Positions 47,801-61,810 of a DNA stretch of 64,000 nucleotides are shown in pieces; position 1 is the stretch's first letter; the number at the start of each line of letters is the position of its first letter. The translations under genes were made by a program, and so were the position numbers. A model generated the notes under the pieces. The model searched no databases. It saw only the letters and a list, made by a program, of their open reading frames with translations, and was not told where the DNA came from. The stretch lies in contig KZ537962.1 in NCBI GenBank assembly GCA_000934665.2, positions 1 to 64,000 on the forward strand, written 5' to 3'. The DNA is from Catajapyx aquilonaris. Taxonomy: Eukaryota.

Positions 47801-48225
47801 TTCGAAACGAAACTCGGCTCTTAACGGAATTGGCACTTTTCGCACCATATTATACTGTGGCTGTGCAGCACTTGACAGGCTAATTTATTTCTTGAGAACC
47901 AACTCACCACTGACCTTCACCTCACTGCAGATTGTTAAATAAAGATAGGAAGTGCTTCCAAAGTGGTTAATTACATGTTTTGAATTCTTGTTATTTAACT
48001 TCTTCCATAGGGGGGCACAAATTGGTGGATTTACCTTAGTAAGTTATTTTTAAAATGGCGCATAAGCTGCCAGTGACATAACTCCCGTTTGACATCAAAC
48101 CACGCTTTATCTAGGCAGACTGCTAAAGCGGCTGTCACCCAAGGCACACGACACGAGGCTTGTTTTGCATCTCCCCCGAGCAAGGTGTCTTGATGATAAC
48201 GTCTGCTTTTCTTCTTCCATTGCAG

Positions 48226-48256
48226 AGTTTTCAAGAAGAGCTCGCCTAATGGGAAG
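48226..48256 (+). CDS. krz: beta-arrestin exon 2 (R-VFKKSSPNGK), 31 nt
   Basis: cttttcttcttccattgcag|A GTT TTC AAG AAG AGC TCG CCT AAT GGG AAG|gtaagt. Encodes the conserved phosphate-binding KK. Confidence 0.95.
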
Positions 48257-50352
48257 GTAAGTCGAGGGAATTAATCCGGAGCGGCGTTGCCTAGTGGGCA
48301 AAAGTGATTAAGGAACCCGGAAGTGATTGGCAGCCATGGAGCAAAGTGTTTGCCTTAGGAAAGGTATTGGTTCCTTGCAAGGTCCCAGGGCTAATTTATC
48401 CGAACGACTTGGGATTAACAGGGCACCGAGCCGCCTTTTTTCAACTCTTGTCTTCAGTTGCTCTTTTTTTTTGTGTGGCCGGGGAAGATGGGATGTGACA
48501 CCTAAAGGCTACAGGATGGCCTTTTCGCCCTTGGCCTCATGTAAAATGGCCAAGAGTGATGGCTGTAGGGTGACAGTTTCGTCTTCAGGGATGCAGGAAG
48601 GACGCTGAAGTAATTGGAATACATGGCTGCGTCTTGTGCCACGTAACACTTTTGTCCCCAAATATTTGTAGGTGTTGCCATCATGGCCAAAAGTGGGGCA
48701 AGTTTTTTCCATTTACAAATTGCGATGCGGCCTTGCGTTTCGTAATTTGGACAAACGCAGTTGGTTTTTTAATCCGGGCCTGCAGCACATACAGATTTCT
48801 GAGCGGAAGCTTTCTGATAGCAGCGTCAATGGGCATCAACAGATAATCCCTTGTCTAAATATTTCTCTTTCATTGCGCCACTGCCCCCACCTTTTAAGCT
48901 GATTAACTAATTTATTGTCAAATGGGGCGCGAAAAAAAAGGAAGTTATCTCTCTGCTGGAGCGAAATTGTCGGAGCCGTCTTTCTTTCCTGGCGGCTATA
49001 AACGTCCGCACAAAGGTCACCATTGCGGCCTGCCGACGACCAAACTGGCTGGAATGACGGTACTCTGACTCCGGTTGGCGACTCATAGACTCAATCAAGG
49101 CAGTGAAAAGTAATCCGTATTTTATTTTTTTATTTGCCATTTAGGAGCAACAATCGTGGAAAGAATTGCGTTTTTTTTTCTCTCTATATACTTTAGGGCG
49201 CATGTGTGGATTAACAAAAACAGGCACTGTACTTTGTCTTTGCACGCATTTATCCAATGTGAATGCCCCATTGCATGCCGGCTCTTCATTACTTTGATCC
49301 GGATATCCGCCCAAATTACAATGCTCAGTTGGCATATATTCGGTGGCATTAATTCCCGCATAAGCTGGCCGTAAAAATGGGCTTGACCATTTCTCACACT
49401 GGTTAATGGGTCATAGGAGTTGGGGGTAGAAATTGAGCGTAACAAAATCTGGGGATATATTGTATGAGAGGGATGCAGGTGAGGACATGGGTGAGGGTAT
49501 AACATGATGAACCGCCCGGTGGAAATCGATAGCCCAGTTAGTTGGAGGCGGGAGAGAAAATCCGCATCAGATGCCCTCCGTGTGTTGGTGACAGTTGCCA
49601 GGACGACGAAGCTCTCCTTCCACCTTTCTGTCCACCCTACATGATATGCAAAGTGGGTTTGGCCACACAGGGACTCTCAAAGGGTTGCAATTTATTGTAG
49701 GGATGTACTAGCATATTGGATTCGTGTTTAAAATCCATGTCGTGGGCTTGAAGAACTACAGTCGTTGGTGACCAGTTGAGGTCCGAAGCAAAGGTCCGAA
49801 GTCCGTCCCATTTTTTATCTGGGAACTAGAGTGCTGTTGGAAGTTGTTCAGAAGTGGAGCAGACATTTTGGAGGTGACAAATTGTTGGACGGGACCCACT
49901 TGTGGACCCGGTCACAGAGAAATGGAAAGGAAACAACGGCGAATGGTGACATGTACTCAGTGGCTATATGCCACAAGTTGGGTTGTAGGACTTTCTGCAC
50001 TCGGGTCGGGCGGAGTTTGAAACTGTTTGGTGGAGATAACCAAGACGTTATCGGATTAGAGACGTGTCCAAAATGTAGGTGGGTGATATTGACTGATAGG
50101 ATATCGTATACAAAATTTATCAGGATTATTATTAAGATTATTTCCAGTTTCAAATGCGCTATTTGAACACGTCCATTGACATTTTAGGCCATAAAATGTA
50201 AAACTGCGTATGATTTAAGGACACATACTGTACTTCAAAAGCTGCAAAATTGAATCACAACTGATCGTGTGAAAAGGCAACGCCGCTCCGTTTCACCCCT
50301 TTTTTGTTATTGAAATAGTTGTTTTTGTTTCTGACCATGTGTGTCATTTCAG

Positions 50353-50413
50353 ATTACAGTGTACCTTGGCAAGCGAGACTTTGTTGACCATGTCACTCAC
50401 GTGGATCCAATAG
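50353..50413 (+). CDS. krz: beta-arrestin exon 3 (ITVYLGKRDFVDHVTHVDPI-D), 61 nt
   Basis: ttcag| and |gtaagt boundaries. Contains the arrestin signature YLGKRDFVDH. Confidence 0.97.
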
Positions 50414-50650
50414 GTAAGTGGCACTAAAGAACTGCATGGGGGGGAAAGGAGCATGACTAAACTGTATAGCCAAAAGACCGGATTAGCTTATAGAGCACGC
50501 CCTGGATGCATGCCTATATAGCTGGTGACGTGAGTGGAGGAATTGGTTTTCGGGCTGGGTGTAGCTGATTGCGGTGCAGCCTCCAGAAAGCAATATTGGG
50601 GAAGCGCGTATAGTGGACCTGATGTAAAGAAAACGTGATGTGTGTTCCAG

Positions 50651-50844
50651 ACGGAGTGGTTCTGATTGACCCTGACTACGTGAAGGACAGGAAAGTGTAT
50701 GGGCATGTCCTGGCAGCCTTCCGGTATGGCAGGGAGGATCTGGACGTACTGGGGCTCACCTTTCGGAAGGACCTGTACCTGGCGTCGGAAAGGATCTTCC
50801 CAGCCGACCCCGATGTCGCCAAACGTCCACTCACCCGACTGCAG
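50651..50844 (+). CDS. krz: beta-arrestin exon 4 (GVVLIDPDY...[18 protein letters not shown]...LTRLQ), 194 nt
   Basis: Contains the finger-loop motif [14 protein letters not shown]. ccag| and |gtaaat boundaries, phase 1 to 0. Confidence 0.97.
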
Positions 50845-53342
50845 GTAAATTCATCCGCATAGTAGCTAATGTACAGCCCCAGTTGGAGCCAAATCTACAC
50901 AATTAAGATTGTGATTTGATATATTGCACATATCCAAAGATGGCCACCTGTATGATTTTTGTGGAATTTCTGACCCGTTGTTACAATGTACCTTGTTCTC
51001 GAATAGGGTTGTGATGAACTATGCATAAGATGAAGAGGGTGCTGTGTAGTACTAATTCATTGCGAGTTATTTATTTATGAAAACCGCGCTAAGCAAGTTC
51101 CAGTTTGCAAGTTTTTGGGGGTATAATTTGTCTGCGGGGGACGATGGTGGTTGTGGCCCATTGAAAATTAATGCGATTCAGGGAGTGATTTGCTGACTGA
51201 GGCAGTGAGGCTTCCGGATCCTTTGACGTCAGCGCAAGGTGTTATAAAATTGATATCTCTGGTTTAATCTGGTGTCCTATTTTAGATTTGAAGGCCCATA
51301 AATAGTGCGACACATGTACATGTTTAGGTTTGAAAATATGATACACGTTCTGTTCTAGAGATATCACATGGTGATGAGGGATTGCATTAGTGTATAGGAC
51401 ATACCATGTAGTGCTCAAGCACAATGACGAATTTCAGAAAGAGTCGAGGACTAACAGCAAGCTTTGGCACAATTGGAGCCCAGCAGGTTCAACGTTTTAT
51501 AAATCACTCAGCAATATTTCCAGTTTACCATCTGGAGCGTTTCCAAATGGCGCAATTTATCATCTGGAGTACTCTCAGTGACATCTCTGCCCTGATTTAC
51601 CGCACAATTGTTTCAGCGATAATATCAGTCCAATACCGAATCCAAATAATGCATTAAAACCGGAGGAATGATTGATCGTACCTGTCCTGGAAAAGGGGCA
51701 GGTGGCAGCAGTTGAACAGTCGTTTCTCTCAAGATTCATTGCTAGATTACGCACTTCCGCCTGTAAATTAAATGCACACATTCTGTGGAGAGTTGGTTGG
51801 GTTACAATGTTGTTCTGTGGCAATGACAAAACATAAATTATGCAATTTCGCATCTATCACATTTGTGAGGCCATTACCAGTGCTACAAACTTTGTCAGCA
51901 GGCGGTTAAAAAATTTAACTGGTGTACAATCATCCATTATTTTATTATTGTTGACCGACTGTAGTGGCTGACAAGACCTTCTGTATCCTGGGAGTTAGGC
52001 TGTGTCGGTAGTATAGTTGGGCACAGTTGGTTGCTTCCAGGCCAGGATGAAATGTGGTTTCTTGAGGAATCCTCCACTGGCACGCCTGGAATCTTGCGGG
52101 GCGAATTCAATACAACCAGTCTTGCGGCTCTTTACAGCCTGCTTCTAGGTGTAGAGTTAGAGCTAGTATATTTTTTACCCCCCTCTGGACGAGACCAGGC
52201 ATCCGGCAAATTGAAAGATTAGAGCTTCCTGGTTGGAGAGAGGAAGAGGATTTTTACTGGGTAGGAGTGGGGATGGGTATAGAGCCCGATGGTTATTCTC
52301 TTTCTTTTTTCCCCCCAACCGTGCGACGTTTGCGTCGACTTAGGAGCAGTTTTTCCTAGGTCCCGGAAAAGCCCTCGCAGCAACCAAATTGAGTTTGGTA
52401 GAGCAGCCGGGACGTTTTCGCCAAAGAGGAACGGATCTCAGGAGTTACTTGAAAACTCGAATTTGCCTTTTTTCTACTTGCTGGGTTGCGATCTTTACTT
52501 TTTATGGCTTGCATTTAAGTAATATTTATGGAATTACTTTATATTTTGTACAAGTAAATTATATTATGCTCTGAGTGACACCAGAAGATTAAGTGAATAA
52601 TACTTACAAGCACAATGTAATTAATGTGATTTTGCACTTGCTGGCCAGCATATCACATCATGGAATGGAGTCTGGCCTTGGTATTTTCTCTGGGATCTTG
52701 GAGGAGAGAAGCTACTCCACAGAGTATTGATCTTAATTTGGGGTATGAACTAAGTCATAAAAACCATTGGGATCCTCTGGTGGCATCATTTCAGTAGCGA
52801 TAACCATATGTTGTGGCCCTAGCTCCTCAGGGAGAGCTTTGGGCTTGTTGATTGTTTTAATTAAAGCCGATGGAAGTCAGCCTGCTGAGCGCAAAATGCA
52901 AATCTGCTAGCTTATTATACAGAACTGAGTGATCCTCAACAAAGTTGAAGCCCCGGGACTGACTTGGTCATGCCTCAGCTGTAATAATGATCCATAAGAA
53001 GTGCATCAAAGAGAAGGAAGTGTTGTTTCTGTGCCTACTGCAATATCCGTAATAATTTATTATCATTGAGTTGAAAGCACAAGAACTAATCAGTATTCTC
53101 CGTACTCAAATATCAGTGTTGTAGAAAAGTACAAACATACCCAGCTGAATCGTGTCAGTTTCACTATAATAAATTTTTACTGGGGTTCACAAATGCCTGT
53201 CATCTCTTGCCATGCTGAACTGGACTTCAAATTCCACCTTCGGCACCAGAATTTAATTGTTGGGTGCATCTGGGATAAGTGTGGAAGTTTGAAAGTTGTG
53301 GTGCTTAAATGGCCATCATCTGTTTGTCTCCCCCCATTGCAG

Positions 53343-53521
53343 GAGCGACTCATAAAGAAGTTGGGGCCAAATGCTTACCCATTCTACTTTGAGCTCCCAC
53401 CACACTGTCCTGCTTCTGTGACACTTCAACCTGCCCCAGGAGACACTGGTAAACCCTGTGGAGTGGATTACGAGCTCAAGGCCTTTGTGGGTGAGACTCC
53501 TGATGACAAACCACACAAAAG
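53343..53521 (+). CDS. krz: beta-arrestin exon 5 ([14 protein letters not shown]...KPHK-R), 179 nt
   Basis: Matches arrestin N-domain sequence [24 protein letters not shown]. gcag| and |gtcact boundaries. Confidence 0.97.
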
Positions 53522-53602
53522 GTCACTTTTTCTCCATTAGTACTTCATCCCCTCTTGTGTGGGTCCTTGCAGTGACAATTCATTTCCATTATTCTGATGC
53601 AG

Positions 53603-53738
53603 GAATTCCGTCCGTCTTGCCATCCGGAAGATCATGTATGCTCCTAGCAAACAAGGAGACCAGCCGTCAGTTGAAGTTAGTAAAGAATTTATGATGAGCC
53701 CCAACAAGTTACACCTTGAAGCTTCACTGGATAAGGAG
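53603..53738 (+). CDS. krz: beta-arrestin exon 6 (NSVRLAIRKIMYAP...LHLEASLDKE), 136 nt
   Basis: Polar-core arginine motif SVRLAIRK, the hinge, and LEASLDKE. gcag| and |gtaagc boundaries. Confidence 0.97.
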
Positions 53739-53847
53739 GTAAGCAATGTGTTGTGAGCATCTGTAGGCAATCAGTAATGTAGTAAGGGAGAACAATTAGC
53801 ATTTAATGGAACGCAGAGTCTATAAATTATTGTTCTGTTAATTTCAG

Positions 53848-53932
53848 CTGTACCACCATGGCGAGAGTATCGCCATCAATGTACATATTGCAAATAACTC
53901 TAACCGAATTGTCAAAAAAGTCAAAATTTCAG
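53848..53932 (+). CDS. krz: beta-arrestin exon 7A ([29 protein letters not shown]), 85 nt, alternative copy 1
   Basis: ttcag| and |gtacag boundaries, phase 0 to 1. Homologous to vertebrate [27 protein letters not shown]. Confidence 0.95.
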
Positions 53933-54102
53933 GTACAGTATGTGTTTTATGCCAGGCTTAACTTTATCTTTCTTCTTCCTTCTCACTGTTGCTCGTACAT
54001 GTGAAAGTGGTGGCAGGCTGGATTGGGTAGTTTACAGTGTCATGCCATGGGTGCTCTGTACCTGGAGCAAGGAAGAAAAACTTTCTCTTTTCCTGCATGT
54101 AG

Positions 54103-54187
54103 CTTTACTGCCATGCCGAGACCATCTCAGTCAATGTCCATATCCAGAATAATTCCAGCAGAAGTGTTAAAAAGATTAAAGTGTCAG
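54103..54187 (+). CDS. krz: beta-arrestin exon 7B (LYCHAETISVNVHIQNNSSRSVKKIKVS-V), 85 nt, alternative copy 2
   Basis: ctttctcttttcctgcatgtag| and CAG|gtatgt boundaries. Same length and phase as 7A, no stops, 18/28 aa identical to 7A. Confidence 0.9.
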
Positions 54188-54833
54188 GTATGTGTCACAT
54201 TCTATGTTTTTGCATTGGTAGTTGTGCAAAGAGTAGTGAACAACTTAATTATGACTGACAAGACTGACAAAGGTCACAGCATCGCTGCTTACTGCACTAC
54301 GTAGCATTTTCTATCGTTTGTCGTATGGATCAAGAGTAGAATGTGTCTCCTATGTTTGGGATGTACTTTATGTTACTGTTACACTGAGATGCACGTAAGG
54401 GATTTTGGTAGTCATAGACAGCTTGGGACTGATGAAATGTATCTCATTGTAATTAATCATAAAATTCAAGTATTCCAAACTCGATATCCATTCCTGTTTG
54501 CTGTTTTTCACACTAAGCTGCTGGTTTTTAAGCATTCTTTAGAGAGATAACAAAATTGGTATCTTCACTCAAGCAAGTGGAAAGGAAACAAATGTCAGTA
54601 ACCAAGTGCATAAATCAAAGTAAATTAGAGATGATATTAACTGTAAATATTTTTGTTAGCTCTTAAATAAATGCTTGAAAGTTAACGCTAAGCTGAATAT
54701 TAGTCGACAGTTGCATGCTAATAAACAGCATAGTGGGGAAAATTCTTAACTCAAGCAAATGTAGGGTTTGGAATACTTTGTGCACGTGTTAAAAACTACT
54801 GATTAACGTGACCTAAATGTTTTTCCTTTATAG

Positions 54834-54906
54834 TGCGTCAGTTTGCAGACATCTGCTTATTTTCTACTGCTCAGTACAAATGTACAGTAGCAGAAATTGA
54901 GAGTGA
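54834..54906 (+). CDS. krz: beta-arrestin exon 8 (RQFADICLFSTAQYKCTVAEIES-E), 73 nt
   Basis: Conserved VRQFADICLFSTAQYKC. tatag| and |gtaagt boundaries. Confidence 0.97.
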
Positions 54907-55732
54907 GTAAGTATCAGGTACATCAGGTATGAGGGGGGATAGGCTTAGTGCAATATGCAGTGACAAATCATGGGTGCAGTCATAGAGTACCGGTACCTGA
55001 TAATGTGAAATGCTGTCCCCTTCCCAAGGCCTGTTTATGGAAACTTTGCAGTTGTGACCTGAAATGTACATTTGCATATTTCATCAGACATTGACCATCT
55101 TGGGAGGGCTCATGATCCATGTAGCATTCATTGTGTTCTTACACTGAAGTTACTGTAATTTTGTTAGGTATAATGACCTTTTTCTGGTGTAATGAGTTCA
55201 GTCTCCAGATCAAGTGAAGGATTATTATCGAATATACAGTAGTAAAATTTTGAGGAGTTATCTCTGGACTTTCCCCTAGCCCTTCTTGGGTTTTACCATA
55301 ATCTCCTAGTTTCCTTGCCTTGTTTCCTCCAATGGACCGAACTTCCCTGTGGCAAAATTTTAACTACACCCATGATCATAGTAAATGATGAACAATTTGT
55401 GGAAGAGAAAGTACGGTAATTCAACCACTGTCAATAAGAGTCTTGGAATTTTAGTGAGTGCAAAAAACAATTTGAAGTGTAGCATACAAGTTGTTCATCA
55501 TTAATTTTCACTGCAGGTTAGTAATATGTGTTAATTAAGACAGGTTTTGCCAGTACAGTGCTTGAGAAACACTTTCAGTCGGTGCAGTAAAACCTAATGC
55601 ACTGAAGTGTCATGGTGGCATGATGCTTTTATAGCAGCTCGAAATTGTAAGTAAATTTCAGGCATTGGTGCGACTGGTTCTTACATTGCACTTTGTATCC
55701 ATGAGCAGTGGAGACTGACGTCTCAGCTATAG

Positions 55733-55946
55733 ATTTTTTATTGCTGGCTAAGCACGTCTCTGAAGAATTGATATCCTTCCTTTTGTATAGTAAGAAAATG
55801 ATTGACAAAAGTAGATGATTGCTATCAAGCTTCAACCTGATGGATTTGCTGTAAATTTTTTATTGCCTGCTAAGCTTATTGCACAGAATTGATGTCCTAC
55901 CTCTGTAGGAAGCAAAATGATTGACAAATATGAATGATTGCTATCA
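55733..55946. repeat. degenerate direct duplication (two copies of about 93 nt, offset about 120 nt) in intron 8
   Basis: attttttattgc..ctaagc..agaattgat.tcct.cc...aaaatgattgacaaa...atgattgctatca occurs at about 55733-55827 and again at about 55855-55946. Confidence 0.75.
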
Positions 55947-56784
55947 GGGCACAGCTTATTCGTCACAGCGGACATTGGAATAGAGTTGTGCATTAACTAT
56001 GCTTTTCACGTAATAACAGTATTAGCCATTCAATTGCCATAGTCGCATCAGAGAATGGATGGAAGTGCACTGTATAATGATTTAGAAGGCTTCTACGGGT
56101 GGGACATGCTATTAATTGCGTCATCCTTTCATTTTAAGATAATGCATGCAATCTGAGGAGTATCTCAAGGTAAATCAATCTAGATGCTGCACATGAACTT
56201 CACAGGTTCAGAGCTTCTCACTTGGGTCCAACTTGTTAGTGTGTGCTATGAATATGTTTCCTAAACTAGTCCATTGCTATAGTAATCTCAGTATCGTATC
56301 CATTGAGATGGAAAGCATTTTGCTTCATAATTCCGGAATGTAATTTATGAGCTAAGAATTCTTTTATTTAATTTGTACAGAGAATTCCCACAGCATTTCA
56401 TTCATATGAATGAGTATCACCAAGAGGACCAATAATATTCCTATAACATGACACAAAGTGTTTTCACATCTCTGCTCATGTTTCCTACTAACTCTAAACA
56501 GGACATTATTTATGGACATGCAGTAGGCCATTGACTCAATTGCAGATGTTAGTTTTATTAGTAGAGAATATGGAAGGATGACAGTAAATTTGTTAACTTT
56601 AAGTCCAGTAAATGCCATTTCCAAGGTCCCTTCATGTCACAGGAGAAATATAATTAGAGAAAAGTAGAACAAAAAGAAAGACTGAGATTTGGGGAAAAGA
56701 GTTGGCAGCAGAGTAGCTTAGCCCCCTGAAATTATTTTGCAAACGTCTGCTGCCACCATCACTGGAGCTGCGGTGTTGTTTCAG

Positions 56785-56928
56785 ACAAGGATGCCCGGTA
56801 GGCCCTGGCTTCACTTTGTCCAAGGTTTTCTATCTGACCCCCCTGTTAGCCAACAATAAAGATAAGCGAGGGTTAGCGCTAGATGGTCTCCTGAAACATG
56901 AAGACACTAACCTGGCGTCCTCAACAAT
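56785..56928 (+). CDS. krz: beta-arrestin exon 9A ([47 protein letters not shown]), 144 nt, alternative copy 1
   Basis: tgttgtttcag| and |gtaagt boundaries, phase 2 to 2. Carries the lariat/gate-loop motif [19 protein letters not shown]. Confidence 0.95.
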
Positions 56929-56993
56929 GTAAGTAGGATTCGGAAACGTAGGTATGGTAGCAGAGTAGTAACCGGTGGGCTTTTTTGTTGCAG

Positions 56994-57137
56994 AGAGGGC
57001 TGCCCAGTTGGGCCAGGCTTCACCCTCTCCAAAGTGTTCTCTTTAACTCCATTGCTGGCCAACAATAAGGACAAGTGGGGCTTGGCCCTTGATGGGCAGC
57101 TTAAACATGAGGATACTAATTTAGCTTCCAGTACCAT
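56994..57137 (+). CDS. krz: beta-arrestin exon 9B ([47 protein letters not shown]), 144 nt, alternative copy 2
   Basis: cttttttgttgcag| and |gtaagt boundaries. Same length and phase as 9A, 43/47 aa identical. Confidence 0.95.
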
Positions 57138-58846
57138 GTAAGTATGGTGCGCACACACTTACACGGCCCAGTAACAATAACTTGTCATCAATGGCAACAG
57201 CCGCTTCAACAATTAACTCACTCTCACTATATGTTAGGGGCCTCATGATGACACTTGCCGTAACTGACACTGTATTTCACTTAATCAAATTCACTCACGC
57301 CCATATGTCATTATGTTGGCCGCATCCTGCATGTTTCGCTAGATTTGTGTCTGTAGCTTTTGGTTGCGAATGGGGAGTAGCACTCGAGGTTTTTATGTGT
57401 GTGTGCATGTAATATGCAGTATTGGGCTGTGCAGAAATGTTGCCTGAAACGAGAAGAAATGGGTCTAATTAAAGTCGTAAACAAATATATAAAATAAATG
57501 GTATGTTTTTAAAATAAAGCATCTCATCACAGCCCACTACTGTACTAGGAGTCTGTGTGACGCACTCAAATCAGTAGTCATGTTGGAAAATGTGGCACAT
57601 AATAATTATGATAAATCTTGGCATTCGGACATGGGTCATGTGAGGCATTATTATGCACTTATCTGAAAATGATTCCACTAAGATACATATATTTGGTTTC
57701 TTTTTTAAATAAAAATGAAATCTGCTGATCTGAGTGTGATTTGGGCTTAAGGATGCCAGCAGGATGCAGAAGCTGTCATAAATATGTATGCAATAGTGTA
57801 AAGTTATAAATTATGCAGTTCCATTTTGCATACCTGCTGGTACCAACCTTTGACCCTTGCACTGGAGAAATCTATTGTTCATTTTTGATATTTGCTATCA
57901 TATTTATCATTGTAAATCTTAACTTTCCAGTTTCACACGTATGTCTGTCAGAAGTTTTATTATTTAGCAGTAGCTGACATTATAATTATTAGACATTGCC
58001 TTCTGTGGATTTCAGTGATGCCAGGAATTCTCTAAATCGTACAGTATGAGAATGGTTTGCAGACCATTCTGGGCACAGTTATAGAGGAAAATTGTCACTA
58101 TCTGCATCCATAATAATCAAAGTTTCTGTGAATGTGTTAGGCACATAAGATATACATGTGCTATTTGCCTGGCGAGATTATTGCCAAAACCAAAGTGTTT
58201 GTTCACTTTTATGTATGTCATTTTAGCGGTCAAAGGTTACCATGGGGTGTTCAGTAACACACACAAATCAACTGTCACATCATACAGAAACCGTAATATC
58301 AAATATTGCATCTAATCCTATTACAAAAACACCTGGATGCATTAGGTTTAATACTCAACTCCAACATGATATAGAAAGAATATGGGATAATAACATGCAG
58401 ACCATTGTGCAGAATTAAATTATCCATTAAATAGAAACTGGAAAGTGTGTAAAGAGAAGTGATACTGCACTGCAGCATGTATGGTATTGATAACCTAATG
58501 ATTCATTAGAACATGAAATCAAGGTGTGCATTAACATTGATTACTTGTCTCAACTTCATGAGAAATACCTTCAATGCAGGTATTTTGTAATGTTACCTGT
58601 ACCATCCATCCAGCAGTGTGGCACATGCCATGAAATGTTTTGCTCTTTGATTAAATATTATATGTTGCAATTAAAGTAATATCTTACAATGTGTTACATT
58701 TTCCTTGATGAATTCAAGGGTTGCAATCAAATGTTGTTCTAATATCAGAGTAAATGACAAGTTGATGTTTGAAATATTTTTGCCCTTGAATCCTGCTTGA
58801 ATGTTATTGCAATTACTGTATAATTCAGTGAGGGCTTAAATTGCAG

Positions 58847-58876
58847 GTTTGATCGGGATCAATCCGGTACTTCAAA
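58847..58876 (+). CDS. krz: candidate 30-nt cassette microexon (M-FDRDQSGTS-K)
   Basis: ttgcag|G TTT GAT CGG GAT CAA TCC GGT ACT TCA AA|gtaatt. Phase 2-2 matches the flanking exons and there is no stop. The pyrimidine tract is weak and I have no homology support. Confidence 0.35.
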
Positions 58877-58955
58877 GTAATTGCTTTTCTTAACTTAATT
58901 ATCATATCACAAAGAATGTAGCATATTAATATCGAAGCCATCAACTTTGTTGCAG

Positions 58956-59042
58956 AATCACTGAGCCATCTCAGAGAGAAAACTTGGGCATTATTGTCCA
59001 ATATAAAGTGAAGGTGAAGCTTTGCCTCGGACCCCTTTCAGG
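58956..59042 (+). CDS. krz: beta-arrestin exon 10 (ITEPSQRENLGIIVQYKVKVKLCLGPLS-G), 87 nt
   Basis: Conserved RENLGIIVQYKVKVKL. tgcag| and |gtaagt boundaries. Confidence 0.97.
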
Positions 59043-59118
59043 GTAAGTTCTTGTGAGACTTACGTGACTGTGCTTTTGATGCAGTTAAATATTCATGCGC
59101 ACTTCACTCTTGTTTCAG

Positions 59119-59265
59119 GGATCTAGTAGCAGAGCTGCCCTTCATCCTAATGCATCCAAAGCCAGAAGAGGAGCCCTTGCCTCCACTCCGTTTAAGTCCT
59201 GCCATGACCTATGACAATGATGGCCACAACGTTCCAGTGGACACCAACTTGATCCAACTTGACAC
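59119..59265 (+). CDS. krz: beta-arrestin exon 11 ([18 protein letters not shown]...[10 protein letters not shown]), 147 nt
   Basis: Contains [11 protein letters not shown] and the clathrin box LIQLD. ttcag| and |gtatgt boundaries. Confidence 0.97.
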
Positions 59266-59520
59266 GTATGTATACATCCTGTTGAACGTTTTCAAAACAT
59301 GTTCACTCGTATGACTTGCACAATGACATTCACATAAAGTGAGTTTGCAAAGATCATGTAATTTAAATAATAATCAGTAAATTACATTTCCAAGATTCAG
59401 TATTTGAATTGCGGCATTTTGTTGGTTACTTCTCACTTTCTCAGTGTTGGAGTTGGTGTAATAATTTCTAACACAAGTGCAGCGGTAGATATATCTAATT
59501 ATCACAAATTTTTGTTGCAG

Positions 59521-59641
59521 AGATGGCCAAGGTGGCATAGCAGACCCTGATGATGACATCATCTTTGAAGATTTTGCACGATTACGGCTAAAAGAACAAG
59601 AGACAGAAGATGGTTGGGAAGTGAGACAAGACCCTTTTTAG
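59521..59641 (+). CDS. krz: beta-arrestin last coding exon (DGQGGIADPDDDIIFEDFARLRLKEQETEDGWEVRQDPF*)
   Basis: AP-2 beta2-binding motif DDIIFEDFARLR. TAG stop at 59639-59641. Confidence 0.95.
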
Positions 59642-61810
59642 CTGAAAAAACACTCTTTGCACTGAATAACGTTCCGCATCTTCAGCAGAGTAATGTTCTG
59701 ACTGTTTTATGAAAGACGAGAAGCCAGCAAAAGCTTCTCATGAGTGCCATGACTCATGCTGAGTGACACTTGTACAGAAGAAGTGCAGGGCATTGGTAAT
59801 TTTTTTTTGCTTAGTTTTAAATATTTTCTTGCCCAGAAATGACGGGTATGACATAAACTGGGTTACACAACAATGTTTTGTATGATTATAATCATCTTTG
59901 TTCCCTTGCGACCTGCAGGGTCCTCCCTTTCCATATTTGTAATGTCTTTGTAATTCAGATGTTTGGTTTCTGTCCTACAAAGTTATATTTTGCTCAGCTT
60001 GTCTTCCATGTCCAACAACCATTTAGCTTAATCTTTTGTGTTGTTCTTATTGTATTCTACTTGTTATTGTATACTTGTGAGGTACTCCACACTTCTGTGG
60101 CCATATGTGATGCATTTGCTCAGTGTACTTTTCATCTACACTGATAGCGTCAGTAAAGTGCGCCTACAGAGGAACATGGTTGTTCCAAAAACTGAGTGTT
60201 TCTCCTTTTCAGTTTTAGCTCAGTCAAATTTTTAATTGGTAGGGTCGAAAAATCTTGCACAAACACCAAATGAAATATTTAAATTGGCATTAAAATACCT
60301 GACTTCACAAGACCTATTCCAAGAAATGAGAGAAGCAATGACTTATTACAAGGTGTTGCTCCGATGTGTGCACATCCGTAGCATCCAATGGCAATCACTT
60401 AGGACCACGTGAAGGTTACGTGCCAATAGCAAGAATTTAGCTGGACCTTGCTTGCCCTTCAGTTGTCTTATTCTGTGGTCTAGTCTTTTTGTCAAATATC
60501 GCGTCCTCTAAGGAAAGGGAGGATGACTGCATATACTCTCAACAACTGCAGTAGTCACTCTTTGTGATGCCCGCATGTAAATTGCTGTGAACAATTTTTT
60601 TTTGCATCTGTGACTTGCAAGTTACCTGGTTCTTTGCACTGTACCAGTGAATCAATGTACTGTACTGTATAGCGATGCTTGTTGTTTTGTAACAATGGTA
60701 TTTTAGAACGGCACTGATACATTAGGAACGCATTTGGAGGTTCTTTTGAATGTGTTGGCTAGGAGATGAGATTAGCTGCTCTTTTGTAAAGGAGGGCATT
60801 GTCATTCCATTGCTGCGAAATGCTAACTGAAGCAATTTGGCAACAAGGGTCCAATTTTTATCTCAGTAGTGGAGTACAGGGATGAGATTCAATTCAGATT
60901 GAAGAGTTCAATTGTAGGGAAAAGAGTTTTATATGCAACTGCCTTTTCAACTACCTGACATATTGGATGACCTCCATTGGAAACTAATTAATTTTGTCAA
61001 ATACTGCTTGTTTGTTGGTGGGCAGAGAAAAAATTGAGATGTATTCTTTAGAAGGAGATAATAATTGTTCAACACGTGCAACACATCAGTTAGCATCAGC
61101 CAACTAGGTGTTCCTGTAGGCGAGGAAAATATTTTCTTTTTTCTACATCTGGAACTGAACTTAAACTTGAAGAAAAGAGGCCAAAATACTGCTCATTTTG
61201 TATCGATTTTGACATAAGTAACCTTGTAGGGGCACGAACAAACTTGGCAAAGGTACAATGTATGCATTTGTATGTAACAATGCAGTTTTGGAAACGGGAG
61301 GCAACAGAAATGTATTAGTGAAATTGGTGCCAGGGCTTGGAGCTATGATGATGTATTTTAGTGCATACCTTTTTAACTGTGTAGGCAAAATTTTGAGAGG
61401 CATATTTCATATCACATCGATTTTCATCAGTTGTTTGCAAAGGTTGTTTAAAGATATTCCTTTATACATTGGAAAGGTGAAAGATGGCATTGTAATGAAA
61501 TGTTGTGCAAAATATTTACCAAGTGACTGCACCCAAATGCTTAACATAGAGTAATTTCGATAAATATGATGAGCTGCACATGCTGTAAAGCACCTGTGGA
61601 CTAATGGTCACTTGTATATTTTTTGAATGAACATGGCATGAATGTGATTTAGGATAACTGATTGTACTTGAGTTGCTGCTGCAGTATTTCAATGTGTAAT
61701 AATACCTTCTGCACTGAATTTATTTGCAACAAAGTTTGTTATATGTTGTATGGTAATCAATCATGTAAAGTAAGGTAAATTATTGTCAATAAAATTCTTT
61801 CCTGTAATGT
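59642..61810 (+). other. krz: probable beta-arrestin 3' UTR (about 2.1 kb)
   Basis: AT-rich non-coding sequence between the stop codon and the first canonical AATAAA I found. Confidence 0.55.
61788..61793 (+). terminator. polyadenylation signal AATAAA
   Basis: Several TGTA elements upstream and U/GU-rich sequence downstream. Lies about 440 nt before the next gene's ATG. Confidence 0.6.

Follow-up and report, generated by a model that had tools for sequence, protein, structure and literature searches.

Exons 9A and 9B of the arrestin gene described here are most probably (about 0.8) a tandem-duplicated pair of alternative exons, roughly as old as Pancrustacea, that switches a receptor-contact residue in a non-visual (Kurtz-type) β-arrestin. 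The analysis was performed on a window of 64 000 nucleotides from Catajapyx aquilonaris, i.e. the whole stretch of DNA that was analysed, and all coordinates refer to it. The anatomy of the pair, purifying selection on the copies, the use of each exon in spliced RNA and the presence of the ordered pair, with arginine (R) in the first copy and tryptophan (W) in the second, in insects, malacostracans and ostracods are established.

Exon 9A (56785–56928, + strand) encodes the R-type sequence KRGLALDG and exon 9B (56994–57137, + strand) the W-type sequence KWGLALDGQ found in Drosophila Kurtz. Both exons are 144 nt in length, are preceded by AG and are followed by GTAAGT. They are separated by an intron of 65 nt (56929–56993, + strand) that begins with GTAAGT and closes with CAG after a T-rich tract; as read from the sequence, it contains a TAAC branch-point-like site, the A of which is at distances of 43 nt and 22 nt from the 5′ and 3′ splice sites, respectively. 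The two exons share phase 1, each reading as 1 nt, 47 codons and 2 nt. The original prediction, made from the letters alone, was exact to the base, and in contigs of the public run X1 (see below) spliced joints coincide with both boundaries of both exons. Nucleotide identity between the copies is 102/144 within the exons, versus 20/60 in the upstream flank and 27/60 in the downstream flank. 9A and 9B thus have the anatomy of a mutually exclusive pair: they are neighbouring homologous exons, alike in length and phase, each has its own splice sites, and their flanks are unrelated.

The 9A peptide matches β-arrestin-1 chains in the PDB (E = 4e-15). Numbering was taken from the full-length PDB chains, with query position p corresponding to β-arrestin-1 residue p + 257. 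In this alignment 9A covers residues of about 258–304, comprising one β-strand and the lariat loop, including the gate loop. The R/W difference between the exons falls on R285 and an L/Q difference on K292. The polar-core aspartates D290 and D297 and the gate-loop lysine K294 are the same in 9A and 9B. These residue correspondences had been given in the original prediction and hold in the PDB alignment.

The pair lies within a collinear series of arrestin exons running from 48224 to 59608 on the + strand, placed there by tblastn searches that used five full-length arrestins as queries; these did not reveal the first coding exon. Translations of single exons match Pfam Arrestin_N (E = 1.3e-10 and 2.5e-04) and then Arrestin_C (partial matches, E = 3e-05 for exon 7A and 2.5e-05 for exon 7B), the domain order of the non-visual β-arrestin/Kurtz subfamily. 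Neither 9A nor 9B alone gave a Pfam match at E ≤ 0.01. The translation of the last two exons includes DDDIIFEDFARLRLK, and we take the C-terminal translations that include it to be the clathrin-box-like and AP2-binding-like motifs of non-visual arrestins. The constitutive exons have a best identity of about 76–77% to any arrestin protein compared.

The constitutive exon 8 (54834–54906, + strand, located by tblastn) lies upstream of the pair and, besides its joints to the pair given below, is reached by joint 53930>54832 (cut +2). It encodes VRQFADICLFSTAQYKC, including the equivalents of Y249, K250 and C251, and its last 2 nt form a Glu codon with the first A of 9A or 9B. The constitutive downstream exon 10 (58956–59042, + strand, located by tblastn) is continued by joint 59041>59118 (cut +1). 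Between 9B and exon 10 lies an alternative microexon of 30 nt (58847–58876, + strand) with AG/GT flanks, which adds ten residues in frame directly after the segment encoded by 9A or 9B. In Anopheles, Bradysia and Hermetia, too, there are annotated isoforms with a ten-residue insert at this point. The gene also holds a second tandem pair, the first exon of which, 7A (53848–53932, + strand, 85 nt), is used in joints 53736>53846 (cut +2) and 53930>54832. The second exon, 7B (54103–54187, + strand, 85 nt), has intact AG/GT sites and an open frame; no X1 contig lay on it, and the depth was 0 over 53936–54783.

A search of public sequencing runs listed none of RNA that contains this sequence. Splicing in this organism was analysed using the one run listed, X1, the library kind of which is not on record and which contained 0.48 of the sampled sequence words. 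The X1 contigs were placed on 53300–59650, and all 22 were at least 99% identical to the window. They contained 11 GT..AG joints, every one of which fits the exon model. On the + strand, exon 8 is joined to 9A (54906>56785, depth 5) and to 9B (54906>56994, depth 5.5). Exon 9A continues to the microexon (56928>58847, depth 5), 9B continues either to the microexon (57137>58847, depth 7.7) or directly to exon 10 (57137>58956, depth 11.2), bypassing the microexon, and the microexon is joined to exon 10 (58876>58956, depth 22.5). Each of the two exons is separately joined to upstream and downstream exons. Among the 11 joints, which derive from contigs that can miss rare forms, none led from 9A to 9B (56928>56994), none skipped both exons and none joined 9A directly to exon 10. 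Because the contigs show presence and not absence, rare forms with both exons or with neither may exist. The sides of the joints measured 28–30 nt, as expected of de Bruijn contigs broken at branch points. X1 also covers intronic stretches, indicating that the run includes unspliced RNA or DNA as well. The two alternative forms and the nine other canonical joints are best explained if X1 is cDNA of this species.

The divergence of the two copies was recounted codon by codon. The peptides differ at four of 47 residues (Q/E, Y/S, R/W and L/Q). Besides 14 identical codons, the 47 comprise 29 with synonymous changes only and four that change the residue, the synonymous set including a TCA/AGT serine at codon 46. 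These figures (four of 47 residues, 29 of the 43 conserved-residue codons and the serine switch) are those of the original prediction. In the 141 coding nucleotides there are 42 differences, distributed as 8, 3 and 31 over codon positions 1, 2 and 3, respectively. When 42 random substitutions were placed on 9A, a mean of 25.3 residue changes was obtained, with four or fewer in 0 of 100 000 runs. By NG86, dN between 9A and 9B was 0.085, and dS was saturated and not computable. Against orthologues of the window, dN ranged from 0.033 to 0.073 for the B (second) copies and from 0.075 to 0.132 for the A (first) copies, again with saturated dS. The B copies are more conserved over taxa than the A copies; 9B differs from the B copy of the metagenome locus L001 by one residue change. 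The pair in the window is the least diverged of the 56 pairs compared below: its copies differ at four positions, whereas the median is 10 and the highest count 24.

Both 9A and 9B are under purifying selection. An old duplication with such selection on both copies had been proposed, and it is borne out by the saturated dS, the random-placement test and the orthologue dN values. Saturated dS rules out an assembly artefact or a recent duplicate, and likewise gene conversion as the cause of the likeness of the copies. That the pair is no assembly artefact, as had also been argued beforehand, is supported further by the splicing of both exons in RNA-derived contigs and by the same ordered pair in many arthropods. 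A dead exon is ruled out, since both 9A and 9B are spliced.

Residues were compared over 56 distinct two-copy pairs including that of the window; the pair of Cyprideis (F, 49-residue spacing) was left out. Position 28, equivalent to R285, is the only column in which the residues of the A and B copies are disjoint: every A copy (56/56) has R, and the 56 B copies have W in 53 cases and C in three. No A or B copy departs from D290 or D297 (56/56 each), and K294 is present in 56/56 A copies and 54/56 B copies, the other two B copies having R. The stretch G286–T304 is almost invariant in A and B copies alike. At the position of K292, the 56 A copies have Q in 54 cases, R in one and L only in 9A of the window. 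The suggestion that the pair swaps residues in the lariat/gate loop consequently stands in part: the R/W difference separates A from B copies in 56/56 pairs, whereas the L/Q difference reflects an L that is unique to 9A of the window, so that the gate loop proper is not swapped by the switch.

R285 is described in the structural literature as a lariat-loop residue that contacts the receptor core in every solved GPCR–arrestin complex. According to PMC13489962 it lines a pocket formed by the middle, C and lariat loops, recently shown to bind a small-molecule modulator, and the R285A substitution cuts the affinity of the ligand 46.5-fold. Crosslinks of R285/G286 to ICL1 are reported in a preprint (10.1101/822957), and PMC7519161 describes a conformation of R285 that shifts with the receptor ligand and a proposed ERK interaction site. 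K292 contributes to polar-core stability according to PMC12733242. Of the two effects that had been offered for the switch, receptor engagement is favoured over the activation threshold, because the polar-core residues are the same in both exons and R285 is a reported receptor-core contact. The R and W isoforms would then differ in core engagement with receptors or partners and not in the polar core.

The distribution of the pair was assessed by a protein search with 9A, which gave 970 proteins at E ≤ 0.001 among 996 candidates. Among the best 120 of these 970 matches, 65 carry a single R-type segment, 15 carry a single W-type segment and 39 have two copies, the first of R type and the second, 48 residues further on, of W, C or F type; the remaining entry is unusual in that both of its copies are R. 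By the names that their sources give, the two-copy proteins come from insects (mayfly, dragonfly, cockroach, termite, bugs, lice, beetles, Hymenoptera and lower Diptera), malacostracans (Penaeus, Procambarus, Panulirus, Scylla and Armadillidium) and ostracods (Darwinula, Cyprideis and Notodromas). Genomic metagenome loci L001, L004/L005 and L015 contain two 144 nt exons with AG/GT sites in the same A-then-B order, separated by introns of 47 nt (L001), 809 nt (L015) and 1581–1590 nt (L004/L005). In L002/L003 the A–B spacing is 1530–1537 nt; at the bounds assumed, only the B exon has AG/GT sites, and the start of A is preceded by AC. A single R-type segment occurs in the listed protein models of chelicerates, myriapods, tardigrades and Daphnia, the Daphnia isoforms being R only in 8/8 cases. 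Copepod-like genomic loci L018, L019 and L022 and transcripts L025–L032 have a single W-type segment. Outside the metagenome loci, single-copy status is that of protein models. In a tree of 56 exon peptides over 47 columns, A copies group with A and B with B within decapods, ostracods and Diptera; 34 of the 51 inner branches are unsupported, and the peptides are too short for testing one origin of B. On this comparison of sequences, the likeliest date for the duplication is at or near the base of Pancrustacea, which would make it roughly as old as that group.

Alternative use of the copies is also apparent in other species. Eleven species of dipterans and sawflies (Phlebotomus papatasi, P. argentipes, Lutzomyia longipalpis, Bradysia coprophila, Anopheles albimanus, A. 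arabiensis, A. funestus, Neodiprion pinetum, Diprion similis, Hermetia illucens and Condylostylus longicornis) are annotated with an R-only and a W-only form of one gene, identical outside the segment save for a one-residue length change. Among 38 transcript-like full-length proteins, taken solely from Logan or JGI contigs of 1.5–6 kb, 20 are R-only and 18 W-only, and none has both copies. Both copies are present in one protein in many genome annotations, including models of about 462–470 residues in several well annotated Hymenoptera and Hemiptera, and in transcriptome-derived UniProt entries from Lygus hesperus (P0030 and P0211) and Cuerna arida (same sequence as P0012). Two sandfly annotations (P0222 and P0223) contain neither copy. 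As both exons are 144 nt long, a transcript with both or with neither keeps its frame, and no frameshift would eliminate it. The both-copy and neither-copy entries may be real minor products or artefacts of assembly or prediction, and the many both-copy models of 460–470 residues from Hymenoptera, Hemiptera and decapods are probably fusions of two alternative exons.

These entries bear on a different reading of the pair, in which the usual transcript contains both exons and encodes an arrestin with an internal tandem repeat of 48 residues, and single-exon forms are minor. The in-frame length of 144 nt would allow this, and the 39 both-copy proteins among the best 120 matches, the hymenopteran and hemipteran models and the Lygus hesperus and Cuerna arida transcriptome entries are what it would produce. 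However, no 9A>9B joint was found in X1 despite the presence of 8>9A, 8>9B, 9A>downstream and 9B>downstream joints, 0/38 transcript-like Logan/JGI proteins have both copies and eleven species have separate R-only and W-only models. The 21 residues that include the polar-core aspartates are, moreover, almost invariant in both copies, as would be predicted for copies that each fill the single canonical position; for a supernumerary segment this is hard to explain. We therefore consider habitual joint inclusion to be very improbable.

Two further explanations accept that the exons are alternative, and both appear unlikely, if somewhat less so than joint inclusion. The forms could be functionally equivalent, the duplication having been kept for control of splicing or expression and the R/W difference being neutral. 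Outside position 285 the copies in the window are indeed nearly alike, and whole lineages have one form (W in higher flies and in the copepod-like loci L018, L019 and L022; R in Daphnia). Were the difference neutral, however, it would not have remained R in all 56 first copies and W or C in all 56 second copies from insects, malacostracans and ostracods, and R285 is a recurrent receptor contact, with R285A strongly affecting a cleft-bound ligand (PMC13489962). Alternatively, the switch could mainly tune the activation threshold, through how stable the polar core and gate loop are, and not the contact with the receptor core. In favour of this, 9A of the window has Leu at a position that is Gln in other arthropod copies and K292 in vertebrate β-arrestin-1, and K292 is reported to have a role in polar-core stability (PMC12733242). 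Since this Leu occurs in 1/56 A copies, it is not the conserved purpose of the pair, and D290, K294 and D297 are alike in both copies over the 56 pairs, save for the change of K294 to R in two B copies. An alternative exon pair that switches the receptor contact R285 is thus preferred to all three.

Several ways in which exclusivity might be enforced were considered. The length of 144 nt, a multiple of three, excludes frameshift and nonsense-mediated decay (NMD), in contrast to known pairs. For a mechanism of the docking/selector type, no pairing was found in a search that covered 54908–58955. A motif of 14 nt, TGGYAGCAGAGTAG, lies upstream of both 9A and 9B; no complement of it occurs in the gene within three mismatches, and the search of the window gave six matches versus 6.4 expected, the two exact ones being the motif copies themselves. 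The motif is absent from the other two-copy loci and was treated as chance or as a splicing-factor site. RNAduplex energies of the 65 nt intron with the two flanking introns were −40.3 and −40.9 kcal/mol, with medians of −41.1 and −40.9 kcal/mol for 30 shuffles, and comparison of the three introns with 76 metagenome loci (blastn-short) returned only chance matches of 12–16 nt (E = 0.1–0.8).

The spacing of the two exons was also considered. In α-tropomyosin, exons 2 and 3 are kept apart because the 5′ splice site is too near to the next branch point, so that the intron between them cannot be removed. The shortest introns spliced in the present gene are 76, 79 and 81 nt in length (X1), versus 65 nt between 9A and 9B, and the 47 nt intron of L001 has a TACTAAT about 21 nt from its 5′ splice site. 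From these distances, steric hindrance is plausible in this genome and in L001, and the spacing of 65 nt may help to prevent splicing of 9A to 9B here. It cannot be a general mechanism, because the A–B intron measures 0.8–1.6 kb (809–1590 nt) in other lineages.

Mutually exclusive exons that arose by tandem duplication are known from Dscam1, Mhc, 14-3-3, sodium-channel exons 5a/5b and α-tropomyosin exons 2/3. The 9A/9B pair resembles these in being made up of adjacent homologues of equal length and phase with the same splice neighbours, which are ancient and both under purifying selection. Unlike docking/selector clusters of the Dscam and 14-3-3 type, it has no detected complementarity. Its two exons lie very close together here (65 nt apart) and in L001 (47 nt apart), whereas 0.8–1.6 kb separate them in other lineages. 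Exons of this class are reviewed in PMC9013439 and PMC9741552. PMC3303723 and PMC9013439 contain no mention of ‘arrestin’, ‘krz’ or ‘kurtz’, and a full-text literature search, with subscription papers outside its reach, gave no description of such an arrestin exon pair. Public databases already contain the isoforms as automatic annotations.

Kurtz (krz) is the single non-visual arrestin of flies. The D. melanogaster protein (UniProt Q9V393; P0312), of 470 residues, is an orthologue by sequence in the same family, with Arrestin_N and Arrestin_C domains, and carries one W-type segment, KWGLALDGQ, so that 9B was rightly recognized beforehand as the Kurtz type. Two RefSeq records of it, NP_524988.1 and NP_001247400.1, have the same sequence, although the second is labelled isoform B. 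The length of 470 residues was considered as a sign of a two-copy protein and rejected: there is one copy, and in dipterans the length of about 465 residues comes from other extensions. In the protein records the R-type alternative of Kurtz is not represented, whereas the gene in the window has both. Clusters of higher flies (Drosophila, the Musca group, Bactrocera, Glossina and hoverflies) have W in 44/44 members with the motif. The R exon seems, from these records, to have been lost in higher flies, or at least to be unannotated there, which may be why the pair is missing from the literature searched.

The long and short forms of mammalian β-arrestin-1 (isoforms 1A/1B) likewise result from alternative splicing in the C-domain of a non-visual arrestin. 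They differ by a cassette insert in another part of that domain, and the lariat loop and R285 are unaffected. Parruti et al. (1993) is among the references of PMC12733242. ‘Isoform 1B of Beta-arrestin-1’ was among the names of the PDB entries matched. Vertebrate β-arrestin-1 and β-arrestin-2 are two non-visual arrestins of one organism with overlapping but distinct preferences for receptors and partners. There the diversity comes from duplication of a whole gene, whereas here one exon is duplicated and the variable residue is R285 itself. Both vertebrate paralogues are said to keep Arg at this position; β-arrestin-2 chains align over the segment, although the residue is not printed in the alignment.

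Taken together, the pair would have arisen by tandem duplication of an exon in a Kurtz-type β-arrestin gene at or near the base of Pancrustacea. In the mature RNA, exon 8 would be joined to either 9A or 9B, each of these then being joined to the downstream exons, and one gene would yield two arrestins of equal length. The two forms would have the polar-core and gate-loop residues in common and differ at the equivalent of R285, which is Arg in A and Trp in B. As R285 probably lines the cleft between the middle, C and lariat loops that receives an intracellular loop of the receptor, the forms should differ in core engagement or in their receptors and partners, with no difference expected in the phosphate sensor or the polar core.

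Arrestins govern the switching off, internalization and rerouting of hundreds of GPCRs, and an enduring question is how so many receptors can be served by one or two arrestins. In the present gene, two receptor-facing lariat loops are encoded. The R285-to-W change also offers a natural, evolution-vetted point variant for recruitment and bias assays. We suggest tentatively, as a conjecture that may well prove wrong, that Pancrustacea have used this splice switch for around half a billion years to sort receptors or outputs, such as ERK signalling and endocytic routes, between an R-arrestin and a W-arrestin. If so, the R/W switch would be the functional counterpart of the vertebrate β-arrestin-1/2 split and, together with 7A/7B and the ten-residue microexon, the gene could encode up to eight variants of the crest and C-domain. 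Half of the system would then have been lost from Drosophila, the one arthropod where Kurtz is known to have been studied. Results obtained with Drosophila Kurtz, which is W only, may not represent mosquitoes, sandflies, other insects and crustaceans that have both forms.

The alternative region of the arrestin gene extends beyond the tandem exons 9A (R-type) and 9B (W-type). A 30 nt alternative microexon (58847–58876, + strand) was identified from joints in the spliced contigs of run X1, a public run of unrecorded kind, and adds ten residues immediately C-terminal to the 9A/9B segment. Joints to the microexon from both 9A and 9B, and from the microexon onward to constitutive exon 10, are present in X1, as is a direct 9B–exon 10 joint that omits it; no direct 9A–exon 10 joint was seen among the X1 contig joints, which can demonstrate a junction and cannot prove its absence. 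In Anopheles, Bradysia and Hermetia, annotated isoforms differ by the presence or absence of a ten-residue insert at the matching protein position.

A second tandem exon pair was observed in the same gene. Exons 7A (53848–53932) and 7B (54103–54187) both lie on the + strand, are 85 nt in length and have intact AG/GT boundaries. Of 28 codons compared, ten are identical, eight differ only synonymously and ten change the residue (dN = 0.22, dS = 2.0). Since 85 is not a multiple of three, inclusion or omission of both exons would shift the frame. The spliced member of the pair in the X1 contigs is 7A only, and no X1 contig lies on 7B. The 7A type (`HIANNSNR') is found in insect, chelicerate and myriapod proteins and the 7B type (`HIQNNS') in crustacean models; insect-like loci have a single exon of this kind.

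A 14 nt motif, TGGYAGCAGAGTAG, occurs on the + strand 69 nt upstream of 9A (56703–56716) and 26 nt upstream of 9B (56955–56968). Its complement was not found across the arrestin gene, and the motif was absent from the other two-copy loci searched. By a rough estimate, chance alone would yield about one motif pair of this kind in 4.3 kb.

Two-copy gene models were surveyed using the proteins matching 9A (P0001–P0042) and their cluster members. Many public models of approximately 462–470 residues from Hymenoptera, Hemiptera, Blattodea, Coleoptera and decapods carry both alternative segments in tandem. These models may represent merged alternative exons, given the RNA evidence for 9A/9B and the R-only and W-only isoforms of other species, but transcriptome entries from Lygus and Cuerna also hold both copies. 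In one report (PMC5222524), Kuruma shrimp is described as having two β-arrestins with unlike partner binding, a scavenger receptor tail being bound by `β-arrestin2' only; the two may be products of separate genes or the R and W splice forms.

In copepod-like loci (L018, L019, L022 and L025–L032; genomic and transcript contigs), a single W-type exon lies amid the usual neighbours with short introns. The R-type exon has probably been lost independently here, as in higher flies.
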